A stretch of DNA of 32,000 nt from Acaryochloris thomasi RCC1774. GTDB lineage: Bacteria > Cyanobacteriota > Cyanobacteriia > Thermosynechococcales > Thermosynechococcaceae. The position numbers were made by a program, and so were the translations under genes. The DNA is taken from assembly GCF_003231495.1 (NCBI RefSeq), contig NZ_PQWO01000011.1, forward strand, positions 1-32,000, written 5' to 3'. The notes below the pieces were generated by a model. The model saw only the letters and a list, made by a program, of their open reading frames with translations, ran no database searches and was not told where the DNA came from. Numbering within the stretch: the first letter of the stretch is position 1; the number at the start of each line of letters is the position of its first letter. Below are positions 3,961 to 28,498 of the stretch, one piece after another.

Positions 3961-4266
3961 ATGAACAGCAAAAAACATTTGATTAACACCGCTCTCGCTG
4001 GATTAGCCGTGGTAACCCTTGGTTTGACCACTGGCCGTGCTGCAGAAGCAAAGGCACTCGGCCACTCTATTGACGATCAACCTGAGACCCAACTCGTGGC
4101 TCTTAAGTTTAAAAAGTTCAAGAAGATTCATCATGCTCCCAAGAAGTTCAAGAAGGCCAAAAAGATCCATCACGGCCACGGTAAGTTTCATGGTCGTAAG
4201 AAGTTCGTTGGCCACAAAAAATTCGTTGGCCACAAAAAATTCCATGGCGGTCATCATTTTCGCTGA
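3961..4266 (+). CDS. Secreted His/Lys-rich low-complexity repeat protein
   Basis: Sec-type signal peptide (MNSKKHLINTALAGLAVVTLGLTTGRAAEA). The mature part is dominated by KKF/HH repeats (KFKKFKKIHHAPKKFKKAKKIHHGHGKFHGRKKFVGHKKFVGHKKFHGGHHFR). The overlapping ORFs 4003-4257(-) and 4037-4294(+) are alternative readings of the same repeat DNA. Confidence 0.6.
   Translation: MNSKKHLINTALAGLAVVTLGLTTGRAAEAKALGHSIDDQPETQLVALKFKKFKKIHHAPKKFKKAKKIHHGHGKFHGRKKFVGHKKFVGHKKFHGGHHFR
4204..4239 (+). repeat. Perfect 18-bp tandem duplication inside the His/Lys-rich gene
   Basis: TTCGTTGGCCACAAAAAA occurs at 4204-4221 and again at 4222-4239 (encodes FVGHKK twice). The related units AAGTTCAAGAAG...CATCA lie upstream. 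Confidence 0.95.
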
Positions 4267-4462
4267 TTCTCTGACGATGGTTAGGCGCTGGTGACCCCGC
4301 CAGGATGTTTTGGCCGCAACAGATTTAGAGGTGCTGGCATCATTAGAGTCTTGAGATGACTTCTACGATTTTCAAAACAAGATTTCATGTCTGATACTTA
4401 TCAAGAACCAGAGGACTGATTATGACTTTACTTAAGTCTGCGCTCCCTGCTCAGTTTTGACC

Positions 4463-6436
4463 TTAGATTTCATCGTCATAAAAGCGATAGAAGAAGTATC
4501 CGTCTTGAAAAGGTTGCTCATCTGTAACATGATGAATCACGCCTCGGTCAATCAATATTTGCCCTAGCTTGATGGCCTCTTGAGTCGAGACTCCCTGAGT
4601 ATGCATCAGCCAGTCAACGGCTTCACAACCCAAAAAACTTTTGGGATAGCTGCGGAGACGATATGTTCGATCTTTGATGTCAATTCCGTTTTGACTCCGC
4701 ATCTGATTTGTAAGCTGCTCTATATCAAGACCTTGAAGAGGGACACGACGTTTGGCCATCGCGCCTACCCCAATATCTTCCGGTGTCGATTCGAAAGTTG
4801 ATGAGCGAATCGTTCCTTGCCTACTGATTGCATTAGGGTAGTAAAGTTCGGTCGGTTGAGGCGTCTGCTGTTGAGTCCAGGTATCAACGAGCGCATTGAG
4901 CTGAGGTGACTGCACATGTAAATCGTGCTGATTGTAAGGAATACGGATTTTGTATTCTTGAAACCGCTTAACAATCAGATACTGCAGATCACTTTTCAAT
5001 AAAAACTGATTTTTGGGCATCCGTGTAGATACGACCAAAAGAAGATTTAGCCCACTGTCACCTAGATCTGTAAAGAGAACAAGGGGTTGCGGATAGCCCA
5101 ACACACCATCATGATGTTTGGCAATTCCTAGCAACACTTGGCGCACCTGATCAATATCGCTGCTGTAGGCTACCTTAACGGGGATAGTGACACGAACAAC
5201 CCGCTGGCCATAATTCCAATTAATCAGGCGCTGACTGACCAGCTCAGAATTAGGAACAAACACAGACACTTGATCGAGTCTACGAATTTGAGTACTGCGC
5301 GTTCCGATATGTTCAATAGTGCCAAAGAGACCATCTAGGTCAATAAAGTCACCCACCTGGATAGGCCGCTCTATGAGCAGAACTATCCCACTGACAAAAT
5401 TATTCACTAGACCCTGTAAGCCAAAGCCAATACCAACCCCTAGTACACTCGCAATAATGGCAAGCGAGCTAATATCAATACCCCAAGCTTGCAAGATACC
5501 CAGGCTTCCAATGCTAGTCAATCCATAGTGTGCGAGCGTGGCAATGGTCTCCTGTGGACCTTTCTCAATACCGGTAAAGCTTAATACTTGGGCCTTAAGG
5601 AAACGTACAATTGCGCCAACTAATAGCCACAGTCCAACAATAAGCCCTAATAAAAGGAGCATATCCGCCAGAGAGTAATTGTTCTCCCCTAGCTGAAATA
5701 GGGGAAACCAGAGGTTCTTTTCTAGGCTGTACCAGACTTGAAAGCGCCATCGGCGAACAAGGGGAAAGAGATCGGTCGTGTAGATAAGAGCCGTAACCCA
5801 AAGAATGCCTTTCAAGCCGAGGATGCCTAAAAATACTAGAGATTGACCCCGCCGAACTGAAGACTGTTGAGGATTTAGAGAAACATAGCGCAAGAGCAAG
5901 CGTTGCTTGAGGATGTTGACAACCATGTGAAGTGAGATCGTTGTCATCAAGGCTAAGGCTAACAGGCCGAATGCCTTGCGCTGGTATCCAGGGGTGCGTT
6001 CCTGCTGTGCTTTTTGGAGTGCTTTATTGAGCCAATCTTGCCAACGCTGCGCCTGCTCACGCGGCATTACTCCTGGGAGTAAATCGCGCTCAGTTACTGT
6101 TAGAAGATGCTGATCGTTGAGCCGTAGTGTCAGGAGATTATCTTGCCTAACAATCTGAACTCGGGGTGGTTCGGTGCTGGAATCATTGCTGAGACTATCC
6201 ATTAGCGACTGATTGACGGGATCGGCGCGATCTTTGGCTGAAAAGCCAGAGATACTATGCACCTGAAACAGAACTCGCCCATCAATCACAATCGGTGATG
6301 GCGTGGTCTGCACTCTGTTGGGGCTTGTCGCGTCCTGAGATCGTACTGCTACGGGCGTACAGATCAGCCCGAGTATTGAGGCTGACAGTATTGCTAAGAG
6401 GCAAAACTTCAGTCGTTTTTTCTGGCCATTGAGCAT
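4463..6436 (-). CDS. MscS-family mechanosensitive channel with N-terminal periplasmic region and C-terminal DEP domain
   Basis: Signal peptide, multiple TM helices and the MscS pore/beta-domain signature (GFGLQGLVNNFVSGIVLLIERPIQVGDFIDLDGLFGTIEHIGTRSTQIRRLDQVSVFVPNS). The last ~85 aa (IKDRTYRLRSYPKSFLGCEAVDWLMHTQGVSTQEAIKLGQILIDRGVIHHVTDEQPFQDGYFFYRF) match the DEP-domain pattern seen in pleckstrin and Dishevelled. Confidence 0.85.
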   Translation of the reverse strand: MLNGQKKRLKFCLLAILSASILGLICTPVAVRSQDATSPNRVQTTPSPIVIDGRVLFQVHSISGFSAKDRADPVNQSLMDSLSNDSSTEPPRVQIVRQDNLLTLRLNDQHLLTVTERDLLPGVMPREQAQRWQDWLNKALQKAQQERTPGYQRKAFGLLALALMTTISLHMVVNILKQRLLLRYVSLNPQQSSVRRGQSLVFLGILGLKGILWVTALIYTTDLFPLVRRWRFQVWYSLEKNLWFPLFQLGENNYSLADMLLLLGLIVGLWLLVGAIVRFLKAQVLSFTGIEKGPQETIATLAHYGLTSIGSLGILQAWGIDISSLAIIASVLGVGIGFGLQGLVNNFVSGIVLLIERPIQVGDFIDLDGLFGTIEHIGTRSTQIRRLDQVSVFVPNSELVSQRLINWNYGQRVVRVTIPVKVAYSSDIDQVRQVLLGIAKHHDGVLGYPQPLVLFTDLGDSGLNLLLVVSTRMPKNQFLLKSDLQYLIVKRFQEYKIRIPYNQHDLHVQSPQLNALVDTWTQQQTPQPTELYYPNAISRQGTIRSSTFESTPEDIGVGAMAKRRVPLQGLDIEQLTNQMRSQNGIDIKDRTYRLRSYPKSFLGCEAVDWLMHTQGVSTQEAIKLGQILIDRGVIHHVTDEQPFQDGYFFYRFYDDEI

Positions 6437-6672
6437 ATATCACCAACTCTCAATTACGCTTTGGGAATGACTCAAGCGTTCTTGCCGCCATGAGAATATT
6501 GCGGAATTTACCCATACATTGCTAGAAAGTTCTCAATCTAGCCGCTAGAGTCAGGCTCATGAGAGACTTTGTCGTCTGCCTGAATGCAGCGTTCGGCTGT
6601 GTTGGCGAAGGAGTGCACTTGAATCCAGTGCTCTAGTAGGCTCATTCCTCCATCATGATACTGATAGATTAC

Positions 6673-6788
6673 CCTCTCATTTCTCTCAGTCAAGGCGACC
6701 GAAACTTGCTGAGAGTTTGTCATTCGCACATAGAAACGGCTCATTTGGGTCTCAGTGAACCTTCGTCGATTGAAGTCATCATCGGAGG
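6673..6788 (+). promoter_or_regulatory. Conserved leader/operator element, copy 2 (paralogous to 3834-3944)
   Basis: Same identical blocks as copy 1. GGAGG at 6784-6788 lies 8 nt before the ATG at 6797. Contains an 11-bp bulged hairpin (CTCTCAG-T-CAAG 6683-6694 / CTTG-CTGAGAG 6705-6715) because the middle CTCAGCAAGTT module is inverted relative to copy 1. Confidence 0.6.
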
Positions 6789-6796
6789 CTTCAATA

Positions 6797-7033
6797 ATGC
6801 GGCACACACAAGAATTGACTATCGCACCTAATGAAATACTTGAAAACACCTTGGCTGTTACCCTGCCACTGTTGAATCAGACTGGGGTGCAAGAGCTAAT
6901 TTCATCCTATGGTGAGTTAGGTTCAGACCCAAGCTCAGACTACTTCACCACCCGCACGAAACATATCGCAGTGCTGTGCATCAATGGAGAGTGGTTTCAA
7001 ATTCGAGCGCATTGCTTTGAGCTGAAATTCTAG
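6797..7033 (+). CDS. Hypothetical 78-aa protein
   Basis: MRHTQELTIAPNEILENTL...WFQIRAHCFELKF. Preferred over the overlapping 6538-6849(-) ORF because it is preceded by GGAGG and by the conserved leader, in the same geometry as the 3961 gene. No family recognised. Confidence 0.35.
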   Translation: MRHTQELTIAPNEILENTLAVTLPLLNQTGVQELISSYGELGSDPSSDYFTTRTKHIAVLCINGEWFQIRAHCFELKF

Positions 7034-7200
7034 CACCAGGGTTCCTTCAGTATGATCCAACAAGGGATTGCAAGAGTGGCTGCATCAAGCCAGAGCCATC
7101 TGAAAACGTACAAGTTTGCGCAATATCGTCCTATACAGGGTAAATAAATAATCCGTAACATAGCTGGGTACCTAGCAAATACCGCGCATTAAGAACTGCT

Positions 7201-8094
7201 ATGCCAGATTTTACTCGCCGCCAAGTGATAACGACAGGTGCGATCGCAACCACAGGTTTCGCCAGTGCGATCGCTGCCAAAAGCGTTGCTGCAAACACAC
7301 TCAACCCACCGGAACCGCAAAGTGAGTCAGCTAAATCTAGCGGTAGATTCTCTGAGAAAGTTGTTCTGATTACGGGAGCAACCTCTGGCATTGGTGCGAC
7401 AACAGCTAAAGCGTTTGCAAAAGAAGGGGCAAAGGTTGCATTCAACGGACGTCGCGCGAACCTCGGACAACAGGTAGAAAAGGATATTCGCGCTCTTGGA
7501 GGAGAAGCCACTTATTTTCAGTCTGATGTGCGGGACCCTAAACAGGTAGAACAGTTTGTCAATGCCACTGTCGATAAATATGGCCGGTTGGATATCGCCT
7601 TCAACAATGCGGGTGTGTTTATGACGCCAGTAGAAATTCAAGAGATGGATCTCGATAACTATCGCAATATGATCGCCACCAATCTTGACGGTGTGTTCTA
7701 TGCGATGCGATATGAGCTGCCTGTTATGATTCAGCAAAACAGCGGCATTATTATCAATATGGCATCAGTGGCTGGACATCGGGGTTTCGCTAACACGCCA
7801 CATTACAACGCCAGCAAGCATGGCGTCATTGGTCTGACTAAAGCTGCTGCCAGCGCTAACGCAAAACGTAATATTCGCATCAATTCCATTTCTCCTTTAG
7901 CTGTTGATACCCCGATGCTGCAGCAGTCCTTCGAATATCAAGGATTGACATACGAGCAAATGGCTCCCAATTTTGTCACTCCCCGAATTATGAACACTGC
8001 GGAAATAGCGCAGGCTGTCATGTTCCTGGCTTTAGATGAAGCAACTTCTATTAATGGAATGGACTTAGACGTTACGGGTGGACAACTCGCATAA
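7201..8094 (+). CDS. SDR-family oxidoreductase with twin-arginine (Tat) signal peptide
   Basis: N-terminus MPDFTRRQVITTGAIATTGFASAIAAKS (RR motif, h-region, AxA). Followed by TGATSGIG Rossmann motif, NNAG, and catalytic S...YNASK. Confidence 0.85.
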   Translation: MPDFTRRQVITTGAIATTGFASAIAAKSVAANTLNPPEPQSESAKSSGRFSEKVVLITGATSGIGATTAKAFAKEGAKVAFNGRRANLGQQVEKDIRALGGEATYFQSDVRDPKQVEQFVNATVDKYGRLDIAFNNAGVFMTPVEIQEMDLDNYRNMIATNLDGVFYAMRYELPVMIQQNSGIIINMASVAGHRGFANTPHYNASKHGVIGLTKAAASANAKRNIRINSISPLAVDTPMLQQSFEYQGLTYEQMAPNFVTPRIMNTAEIAQAVMFLALDEATSINGMDLDVTGGQLA

Positions 8095-8236
8095 GTCTAA
8101 GAACTGGAGCACGAGCTGCAGCGTAGAAGAAGCATCTGAGAAAAACAAAAGTGGCTAGCATTCCAGCGGCAGAAGAACCGGCTGTGGACTCCAGATTTCA
8201 GCCAAAGTGAAATTTACACTAACAGAAGGCATCACC

Positions 8237-9118
8237 ATGACCGAATTCACACGACGACAAATCGTGACGACAGGGGTTGTCGCAGCCACGGGCCTAACGG
8301 CTGCAATTGCTACCGGAGAATTAACTGCCGCTTCCCCCAAATCAACTGAGTCAAGCGCTTCCACTCTTGGCAATCGCTTCACCAACAAAGTCATTCTGAT
8401 TACAGGAGCCACCTCCGGTATCGGCAAGGTCACCGCTAAGGCTTTTGCTCAAGAGGGCGGAAAAGTCTTTTTCTGCGGACGGCGAGCAAACTTGGGTCAA
8501 CAGGTAGAATCCGAGATTCGTGACAGCGGCGGCGAGGCTACTTATCTCCAGGCAGATGTTCGTAATGCCGAGCAGGTTAAGGCTTTTGTCGAAGGCTGCG
8601 TTGCGAAATATGGTCGCCTGGATGTGGCCTTCAATAATGCAGGAATTGACTATCCCCCAGATGCGATCGCAGATACCGACATTGCAGCATTTGACGACCT
8701 AATGAACACCAACGCACGGGGCGTCTTTCTCGGCATGAAATATGAGATTCCCCACTTACTGAAAACAAAAGGGGCCATCATCAACAACGCCAGTATCGGT
8801 GGTCACCGTGCCTTCCCAAATATTGTGGGCTATGGCGCGAGTAAAGCCGCCGTGATTCATATGACTAAAATGGCGGCTCAAGAATACGGGAAGGATATTC
8901 GCGTCAATGTTATTGCCCCTGGTGGTGTGGATACACCCATGTGGGAGCGGGTACAAAAAGACTGGGGCGTAACAGAAGAACAGCTTGTTTCCAGCTACCC
9001 CATGAAGCGAGTGGCGCAGCCGGAAGAGATTGCTAAGGCCGTGATATGGCTGGCGTCAGGTGCAGCCTCCTACGTTTCAGGAATGCGCTTCGATATCGAT
9101 GGCGGTGGCCTGGGCTAA
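8237..9118 (+). CDS. SDR-family oxidoreductase with Tat signal peptide (tandem paralogue)
   Basis: MTEFTRRQIVTTGVVAATGLTAAIATGE, then TGATSGIG, NNAG, YGASK. ATG 8237 is preferred (GAAGG 7 nt upstream) over GTG 8207. Collinear similarity to 7201-8094 throughout. Confidence 0.85.
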   Translation: MTEFTRRQIVTTGVVAATGLTAAIATGELTAASPKSTESSASTLGNRFTNKVILITGATSGIGKVTAKAFAQEGGKVFFCGRRANLGQQVESEIRDSGGEATYLQADVRNAEQVKAFVEGCVAKYGRLDVAFNNAGIDYPPDAIADTDIAAFDDLMNTNARGVFLGMKYEIPHLLKTKGAIINNASIGGHRAFPNIVGYGASKAAVIHMTKMAAQEYGKDIRVNVIAPGGVDTPMWERVQKDWGVTEEQLVSSYPMKRVAQPEEIAKAVIWLASGAASYVSGMRFDIDGGGLG

Positions 9119-9161: not shown

Positions 9162-10274
9162 ATGTCGATCAATCAATACTATACCCTTGGCCGTAGCGGT
9201 CTCCGCGTTAGTCGTTTGGCTTTGGGCACGATGACCTTTGGTACCGATTGGGGCTGGGGCGCAGATCGAGAAACCGCTAGTCAACTCTTCAATATGTACG
9301 TTGACGCTGGCGGAAATTTCGTGGATACGGCTGATTTATACACCAATGGCACCAGTGAAACTTGGGTGGGTGAGTTCATTAAAGAACGGAGCTTGCGCGA
9401 TAAAGTTGCGATCGCAACCAAGTTCTCCTACAACGCCGACCCCGGCAACCCCAATGCAGGCGGCAACGGTCGCAAGAATATCCTCAGAGCTGTCGAGGGA
9501 TCGCTGCAGCGCTTGGGGACAGACTACATCGATCTGTACATCCTCCACACCTGGGACAGTATTACGCCTGCTGAAGAAGTGATGCGAACGCTAGACGATC
9601 TCGTTAGATCTGGGAAAGTTCGCTATGTGGGTTTATCAGATGTTCCGGCTTGGTATGCGTCCCGCGCTCAGACTACTGCAGAACTGAGGGGCTATGAAAC
9701 CCTCTCCACTTTGCAGCTCGAATACTCCCTCGTTGAACGCAATATTGAGAATGAATTTGTCCCCCTTGGCACTCAGCACGGCATGGGCATTATGGTCTGG
9801 AGTCCGTTAGCTAGCGGTCTATTGAGTGGGAAGTATAAGCCCAGCGAGCAGGGCGGCGAAGGGGAAGGACGCCTTGCCGATCTCGCCGGAGCCGATAACC
9901 CAGCCTTCAACAAATTTACCGATCGTAACTGGAAGATCGTGGCTGAACTAGAGGCTGTCGCTAAAGAACTCGATCGCAGTATGGCGCAGGTGGCGGTCAA
10001 CTGGGCTGCGAATCAGCCAGGGATAGCGTCTGTGCTTGTGGGGGCGACCAAACTGCATCAGCTTGAAGATAATCTCAAGGCGTTAGAGTTTGAGATTCCG
10101 AAGGAACTTTGCGATCGCATCAACAAAGCCAGCGCTCCTGATCCCTCCTTTCCGTACACCTTCTTCACGCCTGGAATGCAGGCCATGCTCACCGGAGGCG
10201 CGATCGTTGGGGACAAACCCGAAGGGTACTATCCCACCGTGAAATTTGATGCTAAACCCGCTGGCGTGAGTTAA
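9162..10274 (+). CDS. Aldo/keto reductase
   Basis: LGRSGLRVSRLALGTMTFG..., DTADLY, YIDLYILH, GLSD and WSPLASGLLSGKY are canonical AKR motifs. Lies 43 nt downstream of the second SDR. Confidence 0.9.
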   Translation: MSINQYYTLGRSGLRVSRLALGTMTFGTDWGWGADRETASQLFNMYVDAGGNFVDTADLYTNGTSETWVGEFIKERSLRDKVAIATKFSYNADPGNPNAGGNGRKNILRAVEGSLQRLGTDYIDLYILHTWDSITPAEEVMRTLDDLVRSGKVRYVGLSDVPAWYASRAQTTAELRGYETLSTLQLEYSLVERNIENEFVPLGTQHGMGIMVWSPLASGLLSGKYKPSEQGGEGEGRLADLAGADNPAFNKFTDRNWKIVAELEAVAKELDRSMAQVAVNWAANQPGIASVLVGATKLHQLEDNLKALEFEIPKELCDRINKASAPDPSFPYTFFTPGMQAMLTGGAIVGDKPEGYYPTVKFDAKPAGVS

Positions 10275-21279: not shown

Positions 21280-21627
21280 CTATTCTTTAATTGCCTCTAA
21301 AACTTTAGCAATCATGATCTTCAACTGTGGCACATCTGTCTGAACTGCCTCCCAGATGATCTCTACATCCGTATTGAAGTAATCATGAATCAACTTATCT
21401 CGCATTCCAGCAATATCCCGCCAGGGTATATCAGGATATTGGCTTCTTACAGAGTCTGGAACCCGTTTCACTGCTTCACCAATAATTTCCATCGCCCTTG
21501 ATACCGCAAATACTTTCTCTAAGTTTTGCGAAAATGCTTCAAATTTAACACCCGCCGTAAACTGCTCGATCGCATCCACCGCATCCAAAATATCCTCTAA
21601 ATAATCCTGAATCTGTCGCTGGGTCAC
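21280..21627 (-). CDS. hepT: HepT-like (DUF86) ribonuclease toxin, type VII TA
   Basis: Rx4HxY active-site motif (RDKLIHDY) in a ~115-aa helical protein. The GTG start overlaps the stop of the upstream MNT gene (GTGA at 21624-21627). Confidence 0.85.
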   Translation of the reverse strand: MTQRQIQDYLEDILDAVDAIEQFTAGVKFEAFSQNLEKVFAVSRAMEIIGEAVKRVPDSVRSQYPDIPWRDIAGMRDKLIHDYFNTDVEIIWEAVQTDVPQLKIMIAKVLEAIKE

Positions 21628-21917
21628 AGATAGACCACCTCCGCCAAAATCCGTTTACCAATGCGTGGCTTTAAACCAGCTTTATGCACGAGGTCAACCT
21701 TTACACCCAAATTATCGCTGAGGTAGTTCTCTAAATTGACGAACTTCAAAAGGCTCGGTGTCTTAGAGAACTCCACCAGTACATCCACATCACTAGATTC
21801 CGTCTGTTCTTGCCTAATGTAAGAGCCAAAAATCCCTAACTCTCTGATTTGATAACGCTCCTGCAATACTGATTGGTGCTGTACTAACCATTCCTTAATT
21901 TCTTCCAAAGTTTTCAC
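21624..21917 (-). CDS. mntA: MNT-type nucleotidyltransferase antitoxin
   Basis: GIFGSYIRQEQTESSDVDVLVEF is the GSx10-11DxD nucleotidyltransferase motif. No ATG is available. GTG 21917 is preceded by GAGAGGG 7 nt upstream. TTG 21941 is the track's alternative. Confidence 0.8.
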   Translation of the reverse strand: MKTLEEIKEWLVQHQSVLQERYQIRELGIFGSYIRQEQTESSDVDVLVEFSKTPSLLKFVNLENYLSDNLGVKVDLVHKAGLKPRIGKRILAEVVYL

Positions 21918-22028
21918 AGCTCTACCCTCTCTCAAAGACAAGCACAGTAAGTAATCTACCCTACCTTGTATTAATTATCAGTAAATGAGGCCGGCTTCTC
22001 TTCAAATTTCAACCAGACAAGAACTTGC

Positions 22029-24134: not shown

Positions 24135-26288
24135 ATGAAACCGAACAACAATCAATTTGACGTAGCGATTATTGGCTCCGGTATCGCCGGTTCAACTCTG
24201 GCGTCGATTCTAGCCCGCCAAGGCCAAAAGGTGATTCTCTTTGAGGCCAGTAGTCACCCCAAGTTCGCCATCGGAGAATCCATGATCCTGGAAACCTCCG
24301 AGATCATGCGGTCAATGGCGGAGTTCTACGATGTTCCAGAACTCGCCTACTTCAGTTCTGAAAATTATTTCGAACACATCGGTACTTCCCACGGCGTTAA
24401 GCGCCACTTTAGCTACGCACACCATACCGAAGACCAACCTTTCAACAGAGATCATACGCTGCAGGCAGTGATTCCCAAGCAGCCCCACGGCCACGAACTC
24501 CATCTCTACCGGCAGGATACCGATTATTTTTTGATGACGGTCGCTATCCGCTATGGAGCGAAGGTTTTGCAGAAGACCAATATCCAGTCTGTTCATATTG
24601 ATGCTGATGGTGTGCAGTTGACTACGGATAGAGAACAAGAGTTTCAGGCGGAGTATGTTGTCGATGCTGGCGGTTTCCGGTCGCTGTTAGCTGAGAAATT
24701 CGATCTACGTCATCATGATCTACCAACCCACTCGCGGGCGATTTTTACACACATGGTTGAGGTGCCTTGCTACCACGAGGTGAGTGCAACCAAAGAGAGC
24801 TATCAGCTTCCGTTTCAATTGTCTGAAGGAACTCTGCACCATGTCTTTGAGGGGGGCTGGCTGTGGGTAATTCCCTTCAATAACCATGCGAAATCGACGA
24901 ACCCGCTTTGCAGTGTGGGTCTGATGCTAGATCCTCGAGTGCATCCCCAGCAATCTGAACTCAGTCCTGAAGCAGAGTTTTATCAATTTATTGAGCGCTT
25001 CCCTGGTATTGCTGCTCAGTTTACGCAGGCCAAGGCAGTAAGGGACTGGACGCGAACCGGACGGATTCAGTACAGCGTCAAGCAAGTGGTGGGCGATCGC
25101 AACTGTCTCCTCGGCCAAGCGGCAGGATTCATCGATCCGCTATTTTCAAAGGGACTTTATACATCGTTGTCTTGTACATCGTTGCTGGCAGACCGTTTAC
25201 TGGCCGCGCACAAGACAGGTGACTATTCTGCTTCTTTTTTCAAACCCGTCGAGGAGATGACGCTGGGATTTATTCAAGCCAATGATCATCTAGTTGCCAA
25301 TGCCTACAGATCATTTGCAGACTATCGGCTCTGGCAACCGTTTTCAGTGCTGTGGCTGTTGGGTGCGTACCTGGAATTAGTGAAACTGACGAGCGATCGC
25401 GCCCAAACTATAGACCGCTCTAACTACTATCGACGGTTACAAAATCTCAGGATGGTCGGAGGAGGCTTTCCTGAGTTTGAACGGCTTTCTCAGCAGATTT
25501 ATACACTTTTAGATGACTGCGTTACAGGTGCTTCCGTTACGCAAGTTAGTCAACAGATCAAAGCCCACCTCGATCAAACCTCTTGGATGCCCCAAACATT
25601 TAGGGCTATTTTAAACGGCAAGAATCACCTGCCGACCAGTAAGCTGCATCCCCGGTTACTGCGACGCAAGCAAGGGTTCTTCGGCACAGGGGACTATCGT
25701 ACTCACTTTTTTGCGGATAAGACTCTACCCTTCTTTATCCAATTCTATTTACGAGATAGGGCAAAGTATGGCAGCTCAGTTCTGCAGTTGAAACGCACGG
25801 CAAAACTGTGGCGACGGGGTTTGTTGCCTTCCCCTCAAGTGGGAACTGCGATAGTCTCTGATTGGCCTTCGGCCATCGCAATCTCAGCAATGGTGATCTC
25901 TGGCTTGGTGATTGGCCCCAGGATGCTGAATTCATCGCCGAATCTCGCCAGCACTGCCTCTGTCGATAAAACAGTTATGGGGCTGGTCAATTTTCTGGAT
26001 AATCCCACTGAGTTTAAGCTGGCCTGCGGGAATCATGCGGGGCAAGTTGTTGACGCTCAGGTTCAAGGCGATCGCATCACGATCAAGGTGGTTTCAGGTG
26101 GGATAGATCCTCGACGTGTCACGCTAACTGGCAGCTTGAATGAGCAGGGTGTTTTCAATGGCACTTATCAAACCGAGTTGCCTACAGGTTTAGCTTTTGG
26201 GAAGGTGCGCTTGAATTTTGATCAGGATGGTTCCGCTCAGGGCGTAAATGAGGATTGGGGAGGTGCGATCGCAATTCTCAAAATCTAA
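24135..26288 (+). CDS. Flavin-dependent halogenase-like enzyme fused to a hydrophobic segment and an uncharacterised C-terminal domain
   Basis: GxGxxG (IIGSGIAGS, aa 12-20), WxWxIP (GGWLWVIPF, aa 240-248; W242-P247 = nt 24858-24875) and FxxPxxSxG (FIDPLFSKG, aa 332-340, nt 25128-25154) are the two halogenase hallmark motifs. Hydrophobic stretch SAIAISAMVISGLVIG (~aa 579-594). The C-terminal ~110 aa (nt ~25962-26285) have no family I recognise. Confidence 0.8.
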   Translation: MKPNNNQFDVAIIGSGIAGSTLASILARQGQKVILFEASSHPKFAIGESMILETSEIMRSMAEFYDVPELAYFSSENYFEHIGTSHGVKRHFSYAHHTEDQPFNRDHTLQAVIPKQPHGHELHLYRQDTDYFLMTVAIRYGAKVLQKTNIQSVHIDADGVQLTTDREQEFQAEYVVDAGGFRSLLAEKFDLRHHDLPTHSRAIFTHMVEVPCYHEVSATKESYQLPFQLSEGTLHHVFEGGWLWVIPFNNHAKSTNPLCSVGLMLDPRVHPQQSELSPEAEFYQFIERFPGIAAQFTQAKAVRDWTRTGRIQYSVKQVVGDRNCLLGQAAGFIDPLFSKGLYTSLSCTSLLADRLLAAHKTGDYSASFFKPVEEMTLGFIQANDHLVANAYRSFADYRLWQPFSVLWLLGAYLELVKLTSDRAQTIDRSNYYRRLQNLRMVGGGFPEFERLSQQIYTLLDDCVTGASVTQVSQQIKAHLDQTSWMPQTFRAILNGKNHLPTSKLHPRLLRRKQGFFGTGDYRTHFFADKTLPFFIQFYLRDRAKYGSSVLQLKRTAKLWRRGLLPSPQVGTAIVSDWPSAIAISAMVISGLVIGPRMLNSSPNLASTASVDKTVMGLVNFLDNPTEFKLACGNHAGQVVDAQVQGDRITIKVVSGGIDPRRVTLTGSLNEQGVFNGTYQTELPTGLAFGKVRLNFDQDGSAQGVNEDWGGAIAILKI

Positions 26289-26365: not shown

Positions 26366-28498
26366 TTAAACAATCGCTGCCGACGGAGCCTCAATACTAG
26401 GAAGGGCATTTAGTTCTGCATCACTGAGCGGATCGCCACCCAAGTCACCATAAAGACGAGCGACCGCACCTGTGAAGCCCGCATTGTAGTCAAGGGCAAC
26501 CTCATTCGCGATGAAATCTGAGCGGATGTCCTGGTAGCCATCATCACTGGGCGAAGAAGGACCGCCCACGAGGGCACCATATAGCGTGTGTTCGTTGGGC
26601 TGTGGAGCGTTAACATCGTTAGTCCCTGACGCTCCTCTGTGGTGAGGATTGCGGGCAAAATCATCGCCAAATCCAACCAGATAGCTGAAGTCATTGGGGT
26701 TATCGCCCAAAATGTAATCAATTTGATCTCTGGAGAACTGATCGTACTGCCCGTTTTTATCATTGACGGTATCGCTATAAATCCCAGCCAAGAAAGCCGT
26801 ATTGGCGCTGTGTCGCAGCGAACCCCACTGACTGAGCCATGCTAGGCCACCGTCTGTGTAGGTCACCCCGGAACCTCCCTCTGGTGTCCAGTTGTCTAGC
26901 CAGGCTTCGACATCATTTCTGTAGATATCCTTACCCGTTGCTTGAGCCAGCAAGATGGCACCGCCAGCCGATTTGTTGTCCCAGTCCTGGGTCCAGTCTT
27001 GATTGACGCCTTCGTAGAGATTTTCGGCTTTATCCAAGTAAGCCTCATCCCCCGTTGCCTTATACAGCCAGGTGGCTCCCCAAACTAGCTCGTCATTGAA
27101 GCCGCTAAAGGAGTTATAGAAATTAGAGGCATCCGGGATGGAGTCAGAATATTTGCCGCGATAGGTATCGGCAAACTCAAAGAGCTGCTCCGCATTGGTG
27201 AGTAATTCATCTGCGTAGGCTTGATTGGTGGGCCGGAAAATCGTGGATGCCGCCGCTAAGGCTGCCGCTGCCTCGCCCGCAAGGTCAGAACCGGGGTTTT
27301 GGGCATCAATTTTGAATGCAGTTCTGGGCGCAGGTAACGACTCAGGAGATCCCCAATAAGCGTGGTCAGAGCCGCCTTCTCCCACCTGTCCCCAAAATGC
27401 GCGTGTTCCGTTGGGGCTAGAATCGTGAGCCTTGAGAATGTAATCAGTGCCCCATTTAATCGCGTCTAAGGCTTCATCTAGCTGACCACTTTGCTGATAG
27501 GCTCCTCGATACTCATTGACGCCCCACCCCAGCATGGTCATCGCCCCCGCCATCGGGAAGCCGAATTTGACGTGGTCACCTGCGTCAAAATAGCCGCCGG
27601 TTAAATCACGACCGACATCACTGCCGTCTGTAAGGGTAGAGTCACTGCGCCAAGCAATGCGGTTGTCTCTGGGAAGCGGACCGGAGCGGTTGGCTTCATA
27701 GAAAAGAAAAGACTTTTGCAGCGCCTCGCCATAGTTAAACTCTACAGCTTGAGGAGGATTTGGCGTCGGTGGATTTGGCCCAGGGGCAGGCGTGGGCGGA
27801 TCAATCGGGGGCGGTGCGGCATCGTCATCTTGAATCGTCGCGGTTCCAAACGTTTGATCCCCAAACTCAGCATTGCGAGGACGCCTGAGTCTCAAAGAGA
27901 AAGTCTCGTCCGATTCACTAATGTTGTCATCGAATAAGTTGACCCGAATGAGCTTAGAGGTTTGTCCGGGCCGGAAGACTAGCCTGCCACTGGTGCGCCT
28001 AAAGTCACTGCCTGAAGTGGCCGTGTCATTGCGGGTGGCATATCCAACGGTGACGCGCTCTTCGCTAGCCTCTGCTAGCTCTACTCTGAAGACCGCCGCA
28101 CCATCCCCCTCTGAAACAATGACATCCCCGATAGAAAGCTGAGGCAAAGGTGAGGAGGGTAGGGGCGCTGGGGGCGTCGGGGGCGTTCCTGGAGACTCTA
28201 TATCTTCTCCGTTCAGTGTGTAGCCGCTGGGTTCAGTCGTGGTCTCACCTTGACCGATAAAGCCAAACGAGACGGCATCACCTGAGGCGATGTTCTGGTT
28301 CCAGTCTAAATACTGAACAACGTAGCGGTTGCTGTTTTGACTGATGATTTCTGCATCCCAAATCTGTGTGATTTCAAAGGGGGCTTCAAATTCTAGTGTC
28401 CACCGATCTAATGAGTTTTGACCGTTGTTTGCAATGGAGATAGATCCCTGAAATCCTTGTTCCCATTGGCTCTCTACATTGAAGTCAACAAGATTCAT
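26366..28498 (-). CDS. Glycoside hydrolase family 9 endoglucanase with N-terminal CBM2-like and Calx-beta domains
   Basis: CBM2-like N-terminus (WEQGFQGSISIANNG...WTLEFEAPFEITQIWDAEI...GDAVSFGFIG). Calx-beta (LSIGDVIVSEGDGAAVFRVEL...TATSGSDF...DDNISESDETFSLRL). GH9 motifs (DLTGGYFDAGDHVKFGFPMA, NPHHRGA, DFIANEVALDYNAGF). Pro-rich linkers. Confidence 0.9.
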   Translation of the reverse strand: MNLVDFNVESQWEQGFQGSISIANNGQNSLDRWTLEFEAPFEITQIWDAEIISQNSNRYVVQYLDWNQNIASGDAVSFGFIGQGETTTEPSGYTLNGEDIESPGTPPTPPAPLPSSPLPQLSIGDVIVSEGDGAAVFRVELAEASEERVTVGYATRNDTATSGSDFRRTSGRLVFRPGQTSKLIRVNLFDDNISESDETFSLRLRRPRNAEFGDQTFGTATIQDDDAAPPPIDPPTPAPGPNPPTPNPPQAVEFNYGEALQKSFLFYEANRSGPLPRDNRIAWRSDSTLTDGSDVGRDLTGGYFDAGDHVKFGFPMAGAMTMLGWGVNEYRGAYQQSGQLDEALDAIKWGTDYILKAHDSSPNGTRAFWGQVGEGGSDHAYWGSPESLPAPRTAFKIDAQNPGSDLAGEAAAALAAASTIFRPTNQAYADELLTNAEQLFEFADTYRGKYSDSIPDASNFYNSFSGFNDELVWGATWLYKATGDEAYLDKAENLYEGVNQDWTQDWDNKSAGGAILLAQATGKDIYRNDVEAWLDNWTPEGGSGVTYTDGGLAWLSQWGSLRHSANTAFLAGIYSDTVNDKNGQYDQFSRDQIDYILGDNPNDFSYLVGFGDDFARNPHHRGASGTNDVNAPQPNEHTLYGALVGGPSSPSDDGYQDIRSDFIANEVALDYNAGFTGAVARLYGDLGGDPLSDAELNALPSIEAPSAAIV

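Follow-up and report, generated by a model that had tools for sequence, protein, structure and literature searches.

The subject of this study is a gene located on the minus strand of a 32,000-nucleotide (nt) stretch of DNA from the cyanobacterium Acaryochloris thomasi RCC1774 (contig NZ_PQWO01000011.1), to which, at its full length, we refer as “the window”. We have found that the product of this gene is a bona fide subunit of an MscS-family channel with an intact hydrophobic pore, which bears at its C-terminus, on a flexible tether, a bona fide DEP domain; this architecture is called “MscS-DEP” in the following. From the N-terminus to the C-terminus, the protein consists of a signal-like segment, a periplasmic domain, five transmembrane (TM) helices, a pore and cage similar to those of MscK and MscM, the tether and the DEP domain. 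To our knowledge, the DEP domain is a docking module that has hardly been described outside the signalling proteins of animals and fungi, and our preferred reading, to which we assign a probability of roughly 45%, is that the tethered DEP domain would serve in docking or gating, either at the cytoplasmic face of the channel itself or on a partner protein.

The open reading frame (ORF), 657 codons in length, lies exactly where a preliminary description of the window, made from the sequence alone, had placed it. The same description had proposed a DEP domain for the end of the protein (nt ~4475-4735), and this proposal has been confirmed by profile search: residues 584-652 match the Pfam family DEP (PF00610) with an E-value of 1e-22 and 80.2 bits against a gathering cut-off of 32.7, and the match extends over the whole profile (positions 1-72 of 72). 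The peptide that had been quoted for the domain (IKDRTYRLRSYPKSF...FFYRF) is located at residues 587-652, and the proposed span agrees with nt 4472-4735, which include helix 1 and thus the full fold; the protein terminates two residues past the domain. In the comparison of the C-terminal 99 residues with the sequences of the Protein Data Bank (PDB), the matches are P-Rex1, P-Rex2 and DEPTOR (E-values of about 1e-26 to 1e-25), Epac2 (about 1e-14), Iml1 (about 1e-9), LYCHOS/GPR155 (about 4e-9) and DVL2 (about 1e-8), and the motifs IKDRxYRL, F.G.E.VDWL, GxIHHV and FYRF are common to the DEP domain of the window and to the DEP domains of the PDB.

A structural model of the DEP domain alone has been built, because the Foldseek search with the full-length model is saturated by MscS structures. 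This AlphaFold model, made with 30 homologs, has a predicted local distance difference test (pLDDT) value of 89.8 and a predicted TM-score (pTM) of 0.81, and its secondary structure elements follow the order H-EE-H-H-EE, i.e. helix 1, the beta-hairpin arm, helix 2, helix 3 and the beta wing. In the Foldseek search against the PDB, ranks 1-48 are all DEP domains, including those of DEPTOR, P-Rex1, RGS7, Epac2, DVL2, pleckstrin, LYCHOS and DEPDC5, with root-mean-square deviations (rmsd) of 1.5-2.1 Å (for DEPTOR, PDB ID:7dkl, 1.8 Å and 43% identity) and, for DEPTOR, P-Rex1, RGS7, Epac2 and DVL2, 28-47% identity; the best of the DEP matches have query TM-scores of 0.65-0.76, while the first winged helix of another type, a MarR protein, occurs at rank 49 with an E-value of 0.15. 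The predicted fold is therefore that of a DEP domain and not that of another winged-helix family, which the preliminary description had named as the alternative.

The assignment of the remaining core to the MscS family, also made in that description, is upheld by two Pfam matches that together cover residues 343-499: MS_channel_2nd (PF00924, residues 343-408, 76.3 bits against a cut-off of 20.2) and MS_channel_3rd (PF21082, residues 416-499, 55.7 bits against a cut-off of 21); MS_channel_1st scores slightly under its cut-off (20.6 against 23.1). Canonical helices TM1-TM3 are located at residues 256-355, with the pore helix at residues 322-357. Among the PDB sequences searched with phmmer, the best match is MscK (PDB ID:7uw5, E=4e-41, residues 255-517), and MscM, the MscS of Escherichia coli (EcMscS, about E=3e-27), YnaI, YbiO and the plant channel MSL1 are also matched; in the Foldseek search with the full-length model, the top 50 are all MscS-family structures, led by MscK and MscS. 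The pore helix aligns with MscK and EcMscS free of gaps. In the pairwise alignment with EcMscS, the gate residues L105 and L109 correspond to V334 and F338, both hydrophobic, the hinge residues Q112-G113 and G121 correspond to Q341-G342 and G350, and N117 and R128-P129 correspond to N346 and R357-P358; the EcMscS query has the consistent length of 286 residues, and its L105, L109, G113 and G121 are at the correct positions. Since the gate residues and the glycine hinges map onto their EcMscS equivalents, the pore looks functional, as far as can be judged from the alignment.

Two narrower assignments of the channel have been considered and rejected. The protein is not an ortholog of MscK: with the NCBIfam MscK equivalog (NF008438), for which the cut-off is 991, it scores 196 bits and matches only the C-terminal 271 profile positions, and five TM helices are predicted. 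Nor does it belong to the bCNG class of MscS-like channels, given that a Pfam scan at E<=1 contains no cNMP_binding domain (PF00027) and that the C-terminus is a DEP domain.

The coordinates of the gene, of the parts of its product and of a set of genes that are discussed further below are listed in Table 1.

Table 1. Location of the MscS-DEP gene and of the parts of its product in the window, and location of the FHA genes at five homolog loci (L numbers).
Feature	Residues	Position (nt)	Strand	Basis
Whole gene, MscS-like channel with C-terminal DEP (657 amino acids)		4463..6436 (stop included)	-	ORF list, Pfam, homologs
Basic N-terminus and hydrophobic helix	1-34	6335..6436	-	hydropathy, model, homolog alignment
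Alpha/beta domain, conserved in the family, putatively periplasmic	35-148	5993..6334	-	AlphaFold, conserved columns, inferred topology
Two extra N-terminal TM helices and periplasmic loop	149-249	5690..5992	-	hydropathy, model helices
MscS core: TM1-TM3, beta-domain, alpha-beta cage	250-510	4907..5689	-	PDB phmmer, Foldseek, Pfam
Tether: short helix (511-523), then disordered P/S/T/Q-rich linker	511-567	4736..4906	-	pLDDT, family linkers
DEP domain	568-655	4472..4735	-	Pfam, PDB sequence matches, DEP-only model, Foldseek
Basic beta-hairpin “finger” of the DEP domain (IKDRTYRLRSYPKS)	587-600	4637..4678	-	conservation, charge counts
FHA genes of the FHA-linked clade		L005:5311-5925, L008:5390-5962, L009:4355-4942, L010:4427-4990, L014:4429-5004

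In order to describe the family, we have used the 120 best-matching clusters from a search of 5.8 billion proteins, 40 members of which have been aligned. MscS domains and PF00610 occur together in 120/120 of these clusters, and the identity to the window protein is 37-53% overall, except for the window protein itself (P0001) and for a full-length homolog (P0002) that is 80% identical and covers 100% of the query; the nearest relative of the window is the metagenome-assembled genome (MAG) “Cyanobacteria bacterium P01_A01”. A scan of contigs by an exact-pattern method has returned four loci, and the taxonomy has therefore been taken from the source names of the protein matches: every match in the sample that bears an organism name is cyanobacterial, with Symploca, Okeania, Trichodesmium, Coleofasciculus, Trichocoleus, Leptolyngbya, Leptothoe, Geitlerinema PCC 7407, Spirulina, Xenococcaceae and Elainellaceae among the named sources, many of which seem to be filamentous forms of marine or benthic habitats. 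This distribution shows that the channel and the DEP domain have been maintained together across a phylum. In a neighbour-joining tree, the window protein forms a separate deep clade with P0002, P0003 and P0004.

The DEP block ranks among the best-conserved parts of the protein. Twelve of its residues (G584, F601, G603, W609, A621, G625, Q626, V637, F643, F649, Y650 and F652) are invariant in the 40 aligned members, and eight of the twelve (G584, F601, G603, W609, A621, G625, F643 and Y650) hold across all 120. A single terminal DEP domain is present in 119 of the 120 members; the remaining one, P0005, which is metagenomic and 801 amino acids in length, has two in tandem, and the segment between its two DEP domains repeats the stretch that precedes the first (SVEEVTSIQFIEDIDLEQLA / FVEEVASIQFIEDIDLEQLA). 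That the DEP domain could be a chance match, the product of mis-assembly or of a frameshift fusion, or a decaying appendage devoid of function, is barely credible: nothing specific speaks for it, the shorter start that was chosen by the gene caller (P0001, 616 amino acids) being an annotation uncertainty at the opposite end of the gene, while the match covers the full DEP profile at E=1e-22, the fold is predicted with confidence and the fusion is kept in all of the top clusters, from many genera, with the DEP domain as one of their best-conserved blocks. The Pfam match, the family search, the DEP model and the Foldseek comparison have effectively refuted it already.

The family members bear the sole name “mechanosensitive ion channel (domain-containing) protein”; precomputed annotations already tag them with PF00610. 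The novelty that the preliminary description had claimed for the combination is thus to be divided: we have found no study of MscS-DEP, but the architecture itself is widespread and has been visible in the precomputed Pfam annotations.

The tether between the cage and the DEP domain, which had been described as a linker of ~65 residues with a Q/P-rich stretch, is real; by the boundaries of the hidden Markov model matches, it is 59 residues long (511-569), against about 57 by the limits of Table 1, and contains the stretch TQQQTPQPT. In the AlphaFold model, residues 524-566 are disordered, with pLDDT values below 50 (about 30-45). Across the 120 members, the linker has a median length of 59 residues (range 15-100); P (x2.2), S (x1.6), D, E, Q and T are over-represented in it, hydrophobic residues are under-represented, and it is unconserved in sequence, except for its first helix and for an LYYP-type motif; the median distance from the DEP domain to the C-terminus is two residues. 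The motif, [LIVM][YF][YFN]P, is located ~20 residues into the tether in 25/120 members from several clades and reads LYYP in the window protein (residues 531-534, nt 4835-4846); it may be a linear docking motif.

We have also looked for the DEP domain outside the channel family: after a word-index search with the short query had given three matches, the DEP region was compared exhaustively with 1.84 billion representatives by phmmer. This search has returned 2,986 proteins at E<=1e-3, 1,024 of them at E<=1e-10. At the top of the list are proteins that lack the MscS core and have 2-7 DEP repeats; the top 150 relatives are multi-DEP proteins ranked by summed per-domain scores, and say little on relatives with a single DEP domain. 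Among the sampled matches are eukaryotic proteins (for instance, a multi-DEP protein of Chrysoparadoxa and a kinase-DEP protein of the MMETSP set) and proteins of clearly prokaryotic style, such as TM-EAL-DEP-DEP proteins that resemble c-di-GMP (cyclic diguanylate) phosphodiesterases (P0231, P0263) and TM-anchored proteins with two or three DEP domains; P0124 and P0137 are also among the DEP proteins of prokaryotic style, and there is a stand-alone DEP family of about 154 amino acids.

A search with a DEP profile has identified about 140 short proteins (78-161 amino acids), of which all those with an organism name are cyanobacterial (Geminocystis, Cyanobacterium, Xenococcus, Moorea, Spirulina and Leptolyngbya). 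Adonisia and a Leptolyngbyaceae MAG contain ORFs of 180-208 amino acids whose products end in a DEP domain (L002:5653-6279, L003:5788-6327). Stand-alone DEP proteins share a genome with MscS-DEP in at least two cases, in Leptolyngbya cf. ectocarpi LEGE 11479 (P0087 and P0358) and in Spirulina sp. SIO3F2 (P0106, P0369 and P0389). The closest relatives of the DEP domain of the window (the cyanobacterial stand-alone and multi-DEP proteins P0121, P0122, P0326, the ORFs of L002 and L003, and P0124, and the EAL-DEP-DEP proteins P0231 and P0263) are 50-62% identical to it and, unlike the window protein, have no channel domain. Because cyanobacteria also encode stand-alone DEP proteins, the domain is not exclusively eukaryotic; it is an established cyanobacterial module that occurs in several architectures, and the label “eukaryote-type”, which the preliminary description had given to a domain it had otherwise identified correctly, is overstated and true only historically.

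The distribution of charge in the DEP domain bears on what the domain could bind. The beta-hairpin carries basic residues that are frequent across the family (R590 in 97% of the members, position 591, which is T in the window protein, in 80%, R593 in 75% and K588 in 59%), and its net charge (family median +3) amounts to +4 in the window protein; outside the hairpin, the median net charge of the domain is -7, with -9 in the window protein. The DEP domain as a whole is acidic, with a median of -4, a negative value in 87% of the members and -5 in the window. This charge dipole argues against simple adsorption on an anionic membrane and favours the placement of the basic finger in a specific site.

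In the expected heptamer, seven DEP domains would be suspended from the cytoplasmic cage, at its base, on tethers that would be long enough for each domain to reach the portals of the cage and the face of the membrane. Each DEP domain would be a tethered docking or regulatory module, whose basic hairpin finger, protruding from an acidic body, would insert in a complementary site on the cytoplasmic face of a membrane protein; the site would belong either to the cage or TM domain of the channel itself, in which case the module would autoregulate the gating or the access to the portals, or to a partner protein, and the docking would tune the gating or couple the state of the channel to signalling. 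This reading parallels the use of the domain in eukaryotes, where the DEP domain of DVL2 docks on Frizzled4, that of RGS7 on GPR158 and that of LYCHOS in cis, and complexes of DEP domains with polytopic membrane proteins occur among our Foldseek matches (Fzd4/DEP, PDB ID:8wm9; GPR158-RGS7, PDB ID:7ewr; LYCHOS, PDB ID:8u54). In MscM, a cytoplasmic extension closes the fenestrations of the cage (PMC13591265). We consider it decidedly unlikely that the docking goes as far as a seven-fold “ball-and-chain”, in which the basic fingers of a DEP particle would reversibly plug the portals of the cage or clamp the TM paddles as a gate controlled by a ligand, by phosphorylation or by a partner, with the cyanobacterial DEP domain being ancestral to the eukaryotic one.

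Several points weigh against the docking reading. The full-length monomer model has a pTM of 0.43, which makes the placement of the DEP domain relative to the core unreliable; the neighbours of the channel gene in the window are unrelated metabolic genes that give no functional hint; the stand-alone DEP proteins that are encoded in MscS-DEP genomes indicate that the domain can act without the channel; and the basic hairpins of eukaryotic DEP domains also bind acidic lipids, as in Epac1, whose DEP domain binds phosphatidic acid, and in DVL2, whose DEP domain binds acidic lipids, so that the target could be a lipid. In the last case, the hairpin would bind the anionic headgroups of the inner leaflet, i.e. 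phosphatidylglycerol, sulfoquinovosyldiacylglycerol or phosphatidic acid, and would pin the C-termini of the channel to the membrane, with the lipid composition, the pH or the surface charge biasing the gating or localising the channel. The conserved basic cluster of the hairpin (R590, position 591 and R593, at the frequencies given above) and a tether that is long enough to span the height of the cage are consistent with such an anchor or sensor, while the acidity of the whole domain in most of the family disfavours non-specific adsorption; we regard it as doubtful, though well worth keeping in view.

The docking reading allows for a partner protein, and the genomic context of a sister clade is relevant in this respect. 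We have examined the context of eight homolog loci, and a conserved gene pair has been found in a distinct clade of 28/120 members. In 5/5 of the sampled loci of this clade, a gene on the same strand, directly upstream of the MscS-DEP gene, encodes a membrane-anchored protein of about 190 amino acids, in which an N-terminal FHA domain is combined with a single C-terminal TM helix; among these FHA proteins, the identity is 52-65%. Between the FHA gene and the MscS-DEP gene there are 10-75 nt, except in L014, where the two genes overlap by 4 nt. At 4/5 of these FHA-linked loci, a divergent gene for a Ser/Thr-kinase-TPR (tetratricopeptide repeat) protein is found nearby. The pair of FHA and MscS-DEP genes is absent from the window and from the loci of P0002, P0003, P0050 and P0119, which belong to other clades; the locus of P0020 is at a contig end and is uninformative on the linkage. 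These genes suggest a phospho-dependent control of the channel in the FHA-linked clade, which is not a property of the window gene: the window protein is located outside this clade in the tree, the Pfam search of the window neighbours has found no FHA and no Pkinase domain, and FHA/kinase regulation of the window gene has been rejected, as tblastn with the FHA proteins gives no match in the 32 kb and the nearest homologs, P0002 and P0003, lack the linkage as well.

At the TM3b position that corresponds to L354 of the window protein (nt 5375-5377), Thr or Ser occurs in 28/28 members of the FHA-linked clade, against 15% elsewhere; this residue could be a phospho-site or just a marker of the clade. 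A clade-specific Ser/Thr of the tether as the target of the FHA protein has been rejected, since only positions 22 and 354 stood out and neither of them is in the tether.

A rival reading is a role in signalling: the channel would mainly be a sensor of membrane tension or a platform, on which the DEP domain would recruit other DEP proteins, through domain swapping, or a kinase or FHA protein, the output being signalling rather than the release of solutes. The coexistence of stand-alone DEP proteins with MscS-DEP in strain LEGE 11479 and in SIO3F2, the EAL-DEP-DEP and TM-anchored multi-DEP proteins, the FHA gene of the sister clade with the kinase-TPR gene at four of its loci, and the domain-swapped DEP dimers of DVL2 (PDB ID:5lnp and 5suy, both among the Foldseek matches) are in line with this scaffold, as is the finding that bCNG channels give no rescue from down-shock (PMC13591265). 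The window and its clade, however, lack the FHA/kinase link, as checked for the window itself and for P0002 and P0003, and an intact pore, as it appears in the alignment, suggests real conductance; we consider the scaffold unlikely.

The N-terminal part of the protein, which precedes the MscS core, consists of three segments. The first has its hydropathy peak at residues 7-33, a net charge of +5 and a model helix at residues 2-26, and is read by us as a putative signal peptide or N-terminal anchor; the aligned homologs have an equivalent segment, followed by “AQ”. The product of the gene caller (P0001) starts from a GTG that is located 41 codons downstream and drops this segment; we have preferred the ATG at 6436 because P0002 and other homologs align across it. 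The second segment is an alpha/beta domain with pLDDT values of about 85-94 for residues 45-146 and with conserved columns at G53, R70, LLTVT (111-115) and W132 in the family alignment. The third contains the extra TM helices, at residues of about 154-177 and 198-221 according to hydropathy and AlphaFold, with a basic, Arg-rich cytoplasmic loop between them; the helices of the model are located at residues 149-187, 191-221 and 225-242. From the five TM helices and the N-out rule of MscS, the N-terminal domain is placed in the periplasm and the C-terminus in the cytoplasm.

Upstream of the channel gene, a spacer of ~760 bp is followed by genes for two short-chain dehydrogenases/reductases (SDRs) and an aldo/keto reductase; downstream, and convergent to it, are a small ORF for a K/H-rich, secreted-looking product and a gene for a lipoprotein with a metallo-beta-lactamase fold. 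The spacer (6437-7200) contains only a doubtful GTG-initiated ORF of 103 amino acids (6538-6849, minus strand) with no Pfam match. In the scan for promoters and terminators, the counts are not above those of shuffled controls, with no minus-strand terminator after the stop codon and no convincing promoter upstream, and the Rfam search of the window has found no RNA family. The small convergent ORF (3961-4266, plus strand, 101 amino acids) begins with a signal-peptide-like segment that is followed by Lys/His/Phe-rich repeats (KKFKKIHH, KKFVGHKKFVGHKKFHGGHH), contains an 18-nt tandem repeat at 4204-4248, has no Pfam match and is accompanied by a terminator-like hairpin at 4288-4303; the product could be a polycationic peptide or a metal-binding one, located in the periplasm. 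The SDR genes (7201-8094 and 8207-9118, both on the plus strand, followed by the aldo/keto reductase gene at 9162-10274, also plus) are tandem paralogs, whose products both begin with a twin-arginine-like “FTRRQ(V/I)xTTG” and a hydrophobic stretch; the N-termini suggest export by the twin-arginine translocation system, which is unusual for SDRs.

Farther away on the window, two minus-strand genes that overlap by 4 nt, for a HepT-like RNase (21280-21627, PF01934) and an MntA-type nucleotidyltransferase (21624-21941, PF01909), form a HEPN/MNT toxin-antitoxin pair; it is located at 21-22 kb, in the low-GC bin of the window, where the GC skew is strongly negative, and adjoins a DUF1016 gene fragment; the region could be a mobile island of small size. 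At a distance of about 20 kb from the channel gene, a minus-strand gene (26366-28498) encodes a protein of 710 amino acids with CBM2, Calx-beta and GH9 endoglucanase-like parts, and its opposite-strand neighbour (24135-26288, plus) encodes a halogenase-like protein of 717 amino acids that would be dependent on flavin adenine dinucleotide.

Among the known systems, the bCNG (bacterial cyclic-nucleotide-gated) channels are close in plan. A review of MscS-like channels of September 2026 (PMC13591265), according to which knowledge of these channels beyond E. coli is “very limited”, cites bCNG, described by Caldwell et al. 2010 and Malcolm et al. 2012 (as cited there), and no other class of bacterial MscS-like channels whose C-terminal domain binds a ligand, and the analogy with bCNG that the preliminary description had drawn is apt. 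Both have the MscS pore and cage as a chassis with an appended C-terminal soluble regulatory domain, and bCNG is mostly found in cyanobacteria as well; its physiological role is unclear and it has no structure (PMC13591265). The two differ in the appended domain, which is a cNMP-binding one (PF00027) with a known ligand in bCNG and a DEP domain in the window protein, and in the signal peptide, the periplasmic domain and the two extra TM helices that the latter also has. E. coli MscK and MscM (PDB ID:7uw5 and 11so) give the best matches for pore and cage, have F at the position of EcMscS L109 and share the plan of a periplasmic N-terminal domain with extra TM helices; MscK, however, is a protein of roughly 1100 amino acids with 11 TM helices, the N-terminal side of the window protein has about 250 residues against about 830, with five TM helices in all against 11, and neither MscK nor MscM has a C-terminal DEP domain.

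On the DEP side, LYCHOS/GPR155 (PDB ID:8u54 and 9jbe) also carries the domain in cis on the cytoplasmic C-terminus of a polytopic membrane protein and is matched directly in sequence (at the E-value given above) and in structure (Foldseek ranks 28-39); it is a eukaryotic lysosomal hybrid of transporter and G protein-coupled receptor (GPCR), a dimer and not a heptamer, and the homology is confined to the DEP domain. The DEP domains of P-Rex1, DEPTOR, Epac2, RGS7 and DVL2 are identical in fold to that of the window, within the rmsd range already given, but belong to soluble eukaryotic signalling proteins that dock in trans, whereas the window DEP is covalently tethered to a bacterial channel and has an unusually acidic body. 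Our literature search, with many subscription papers outside its reach, has found no paper on MscS-DEP, bacterial DEP, EAL-DEP or FHA-MscS. MscS-DEP is an uncharacterised accessory-domain variant of the MscS-like channels, neither categorically new nor unique to this genome.

Accessory-domain MscS-like channels are believed to serve in more than emergency release upon osmotic shock, and MscS-DEP would stand beside bCNG as a second large, well-conserved class with a C-terminal domain. The sister clade points to phospho-dependent control of a mechanosensitive channel via an FHA protein and a Ser/Thr kinase, of which we have found no bacterial report. The family also bears on the origin of the DEP domain, usually listed as an invention of eukaryotic signalling: if the ball-and-chain view and the ancestry that goes with it were true, the ancestral job of the domain would have been docking on polytopic membrane proteins, and its later use with GPCRs would thereby be explained. 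For the biology of the DEP domain, the cyanobacterial proteins would provide a simple prokaryotic system for the study of recognition by the hairpin, free of the complexity of Wnt, mTOR and GPCR signalling, and for the biophysics of channels, MscS-DEP would be a natural model of the regulation of the MscS cage by a tethered domain.

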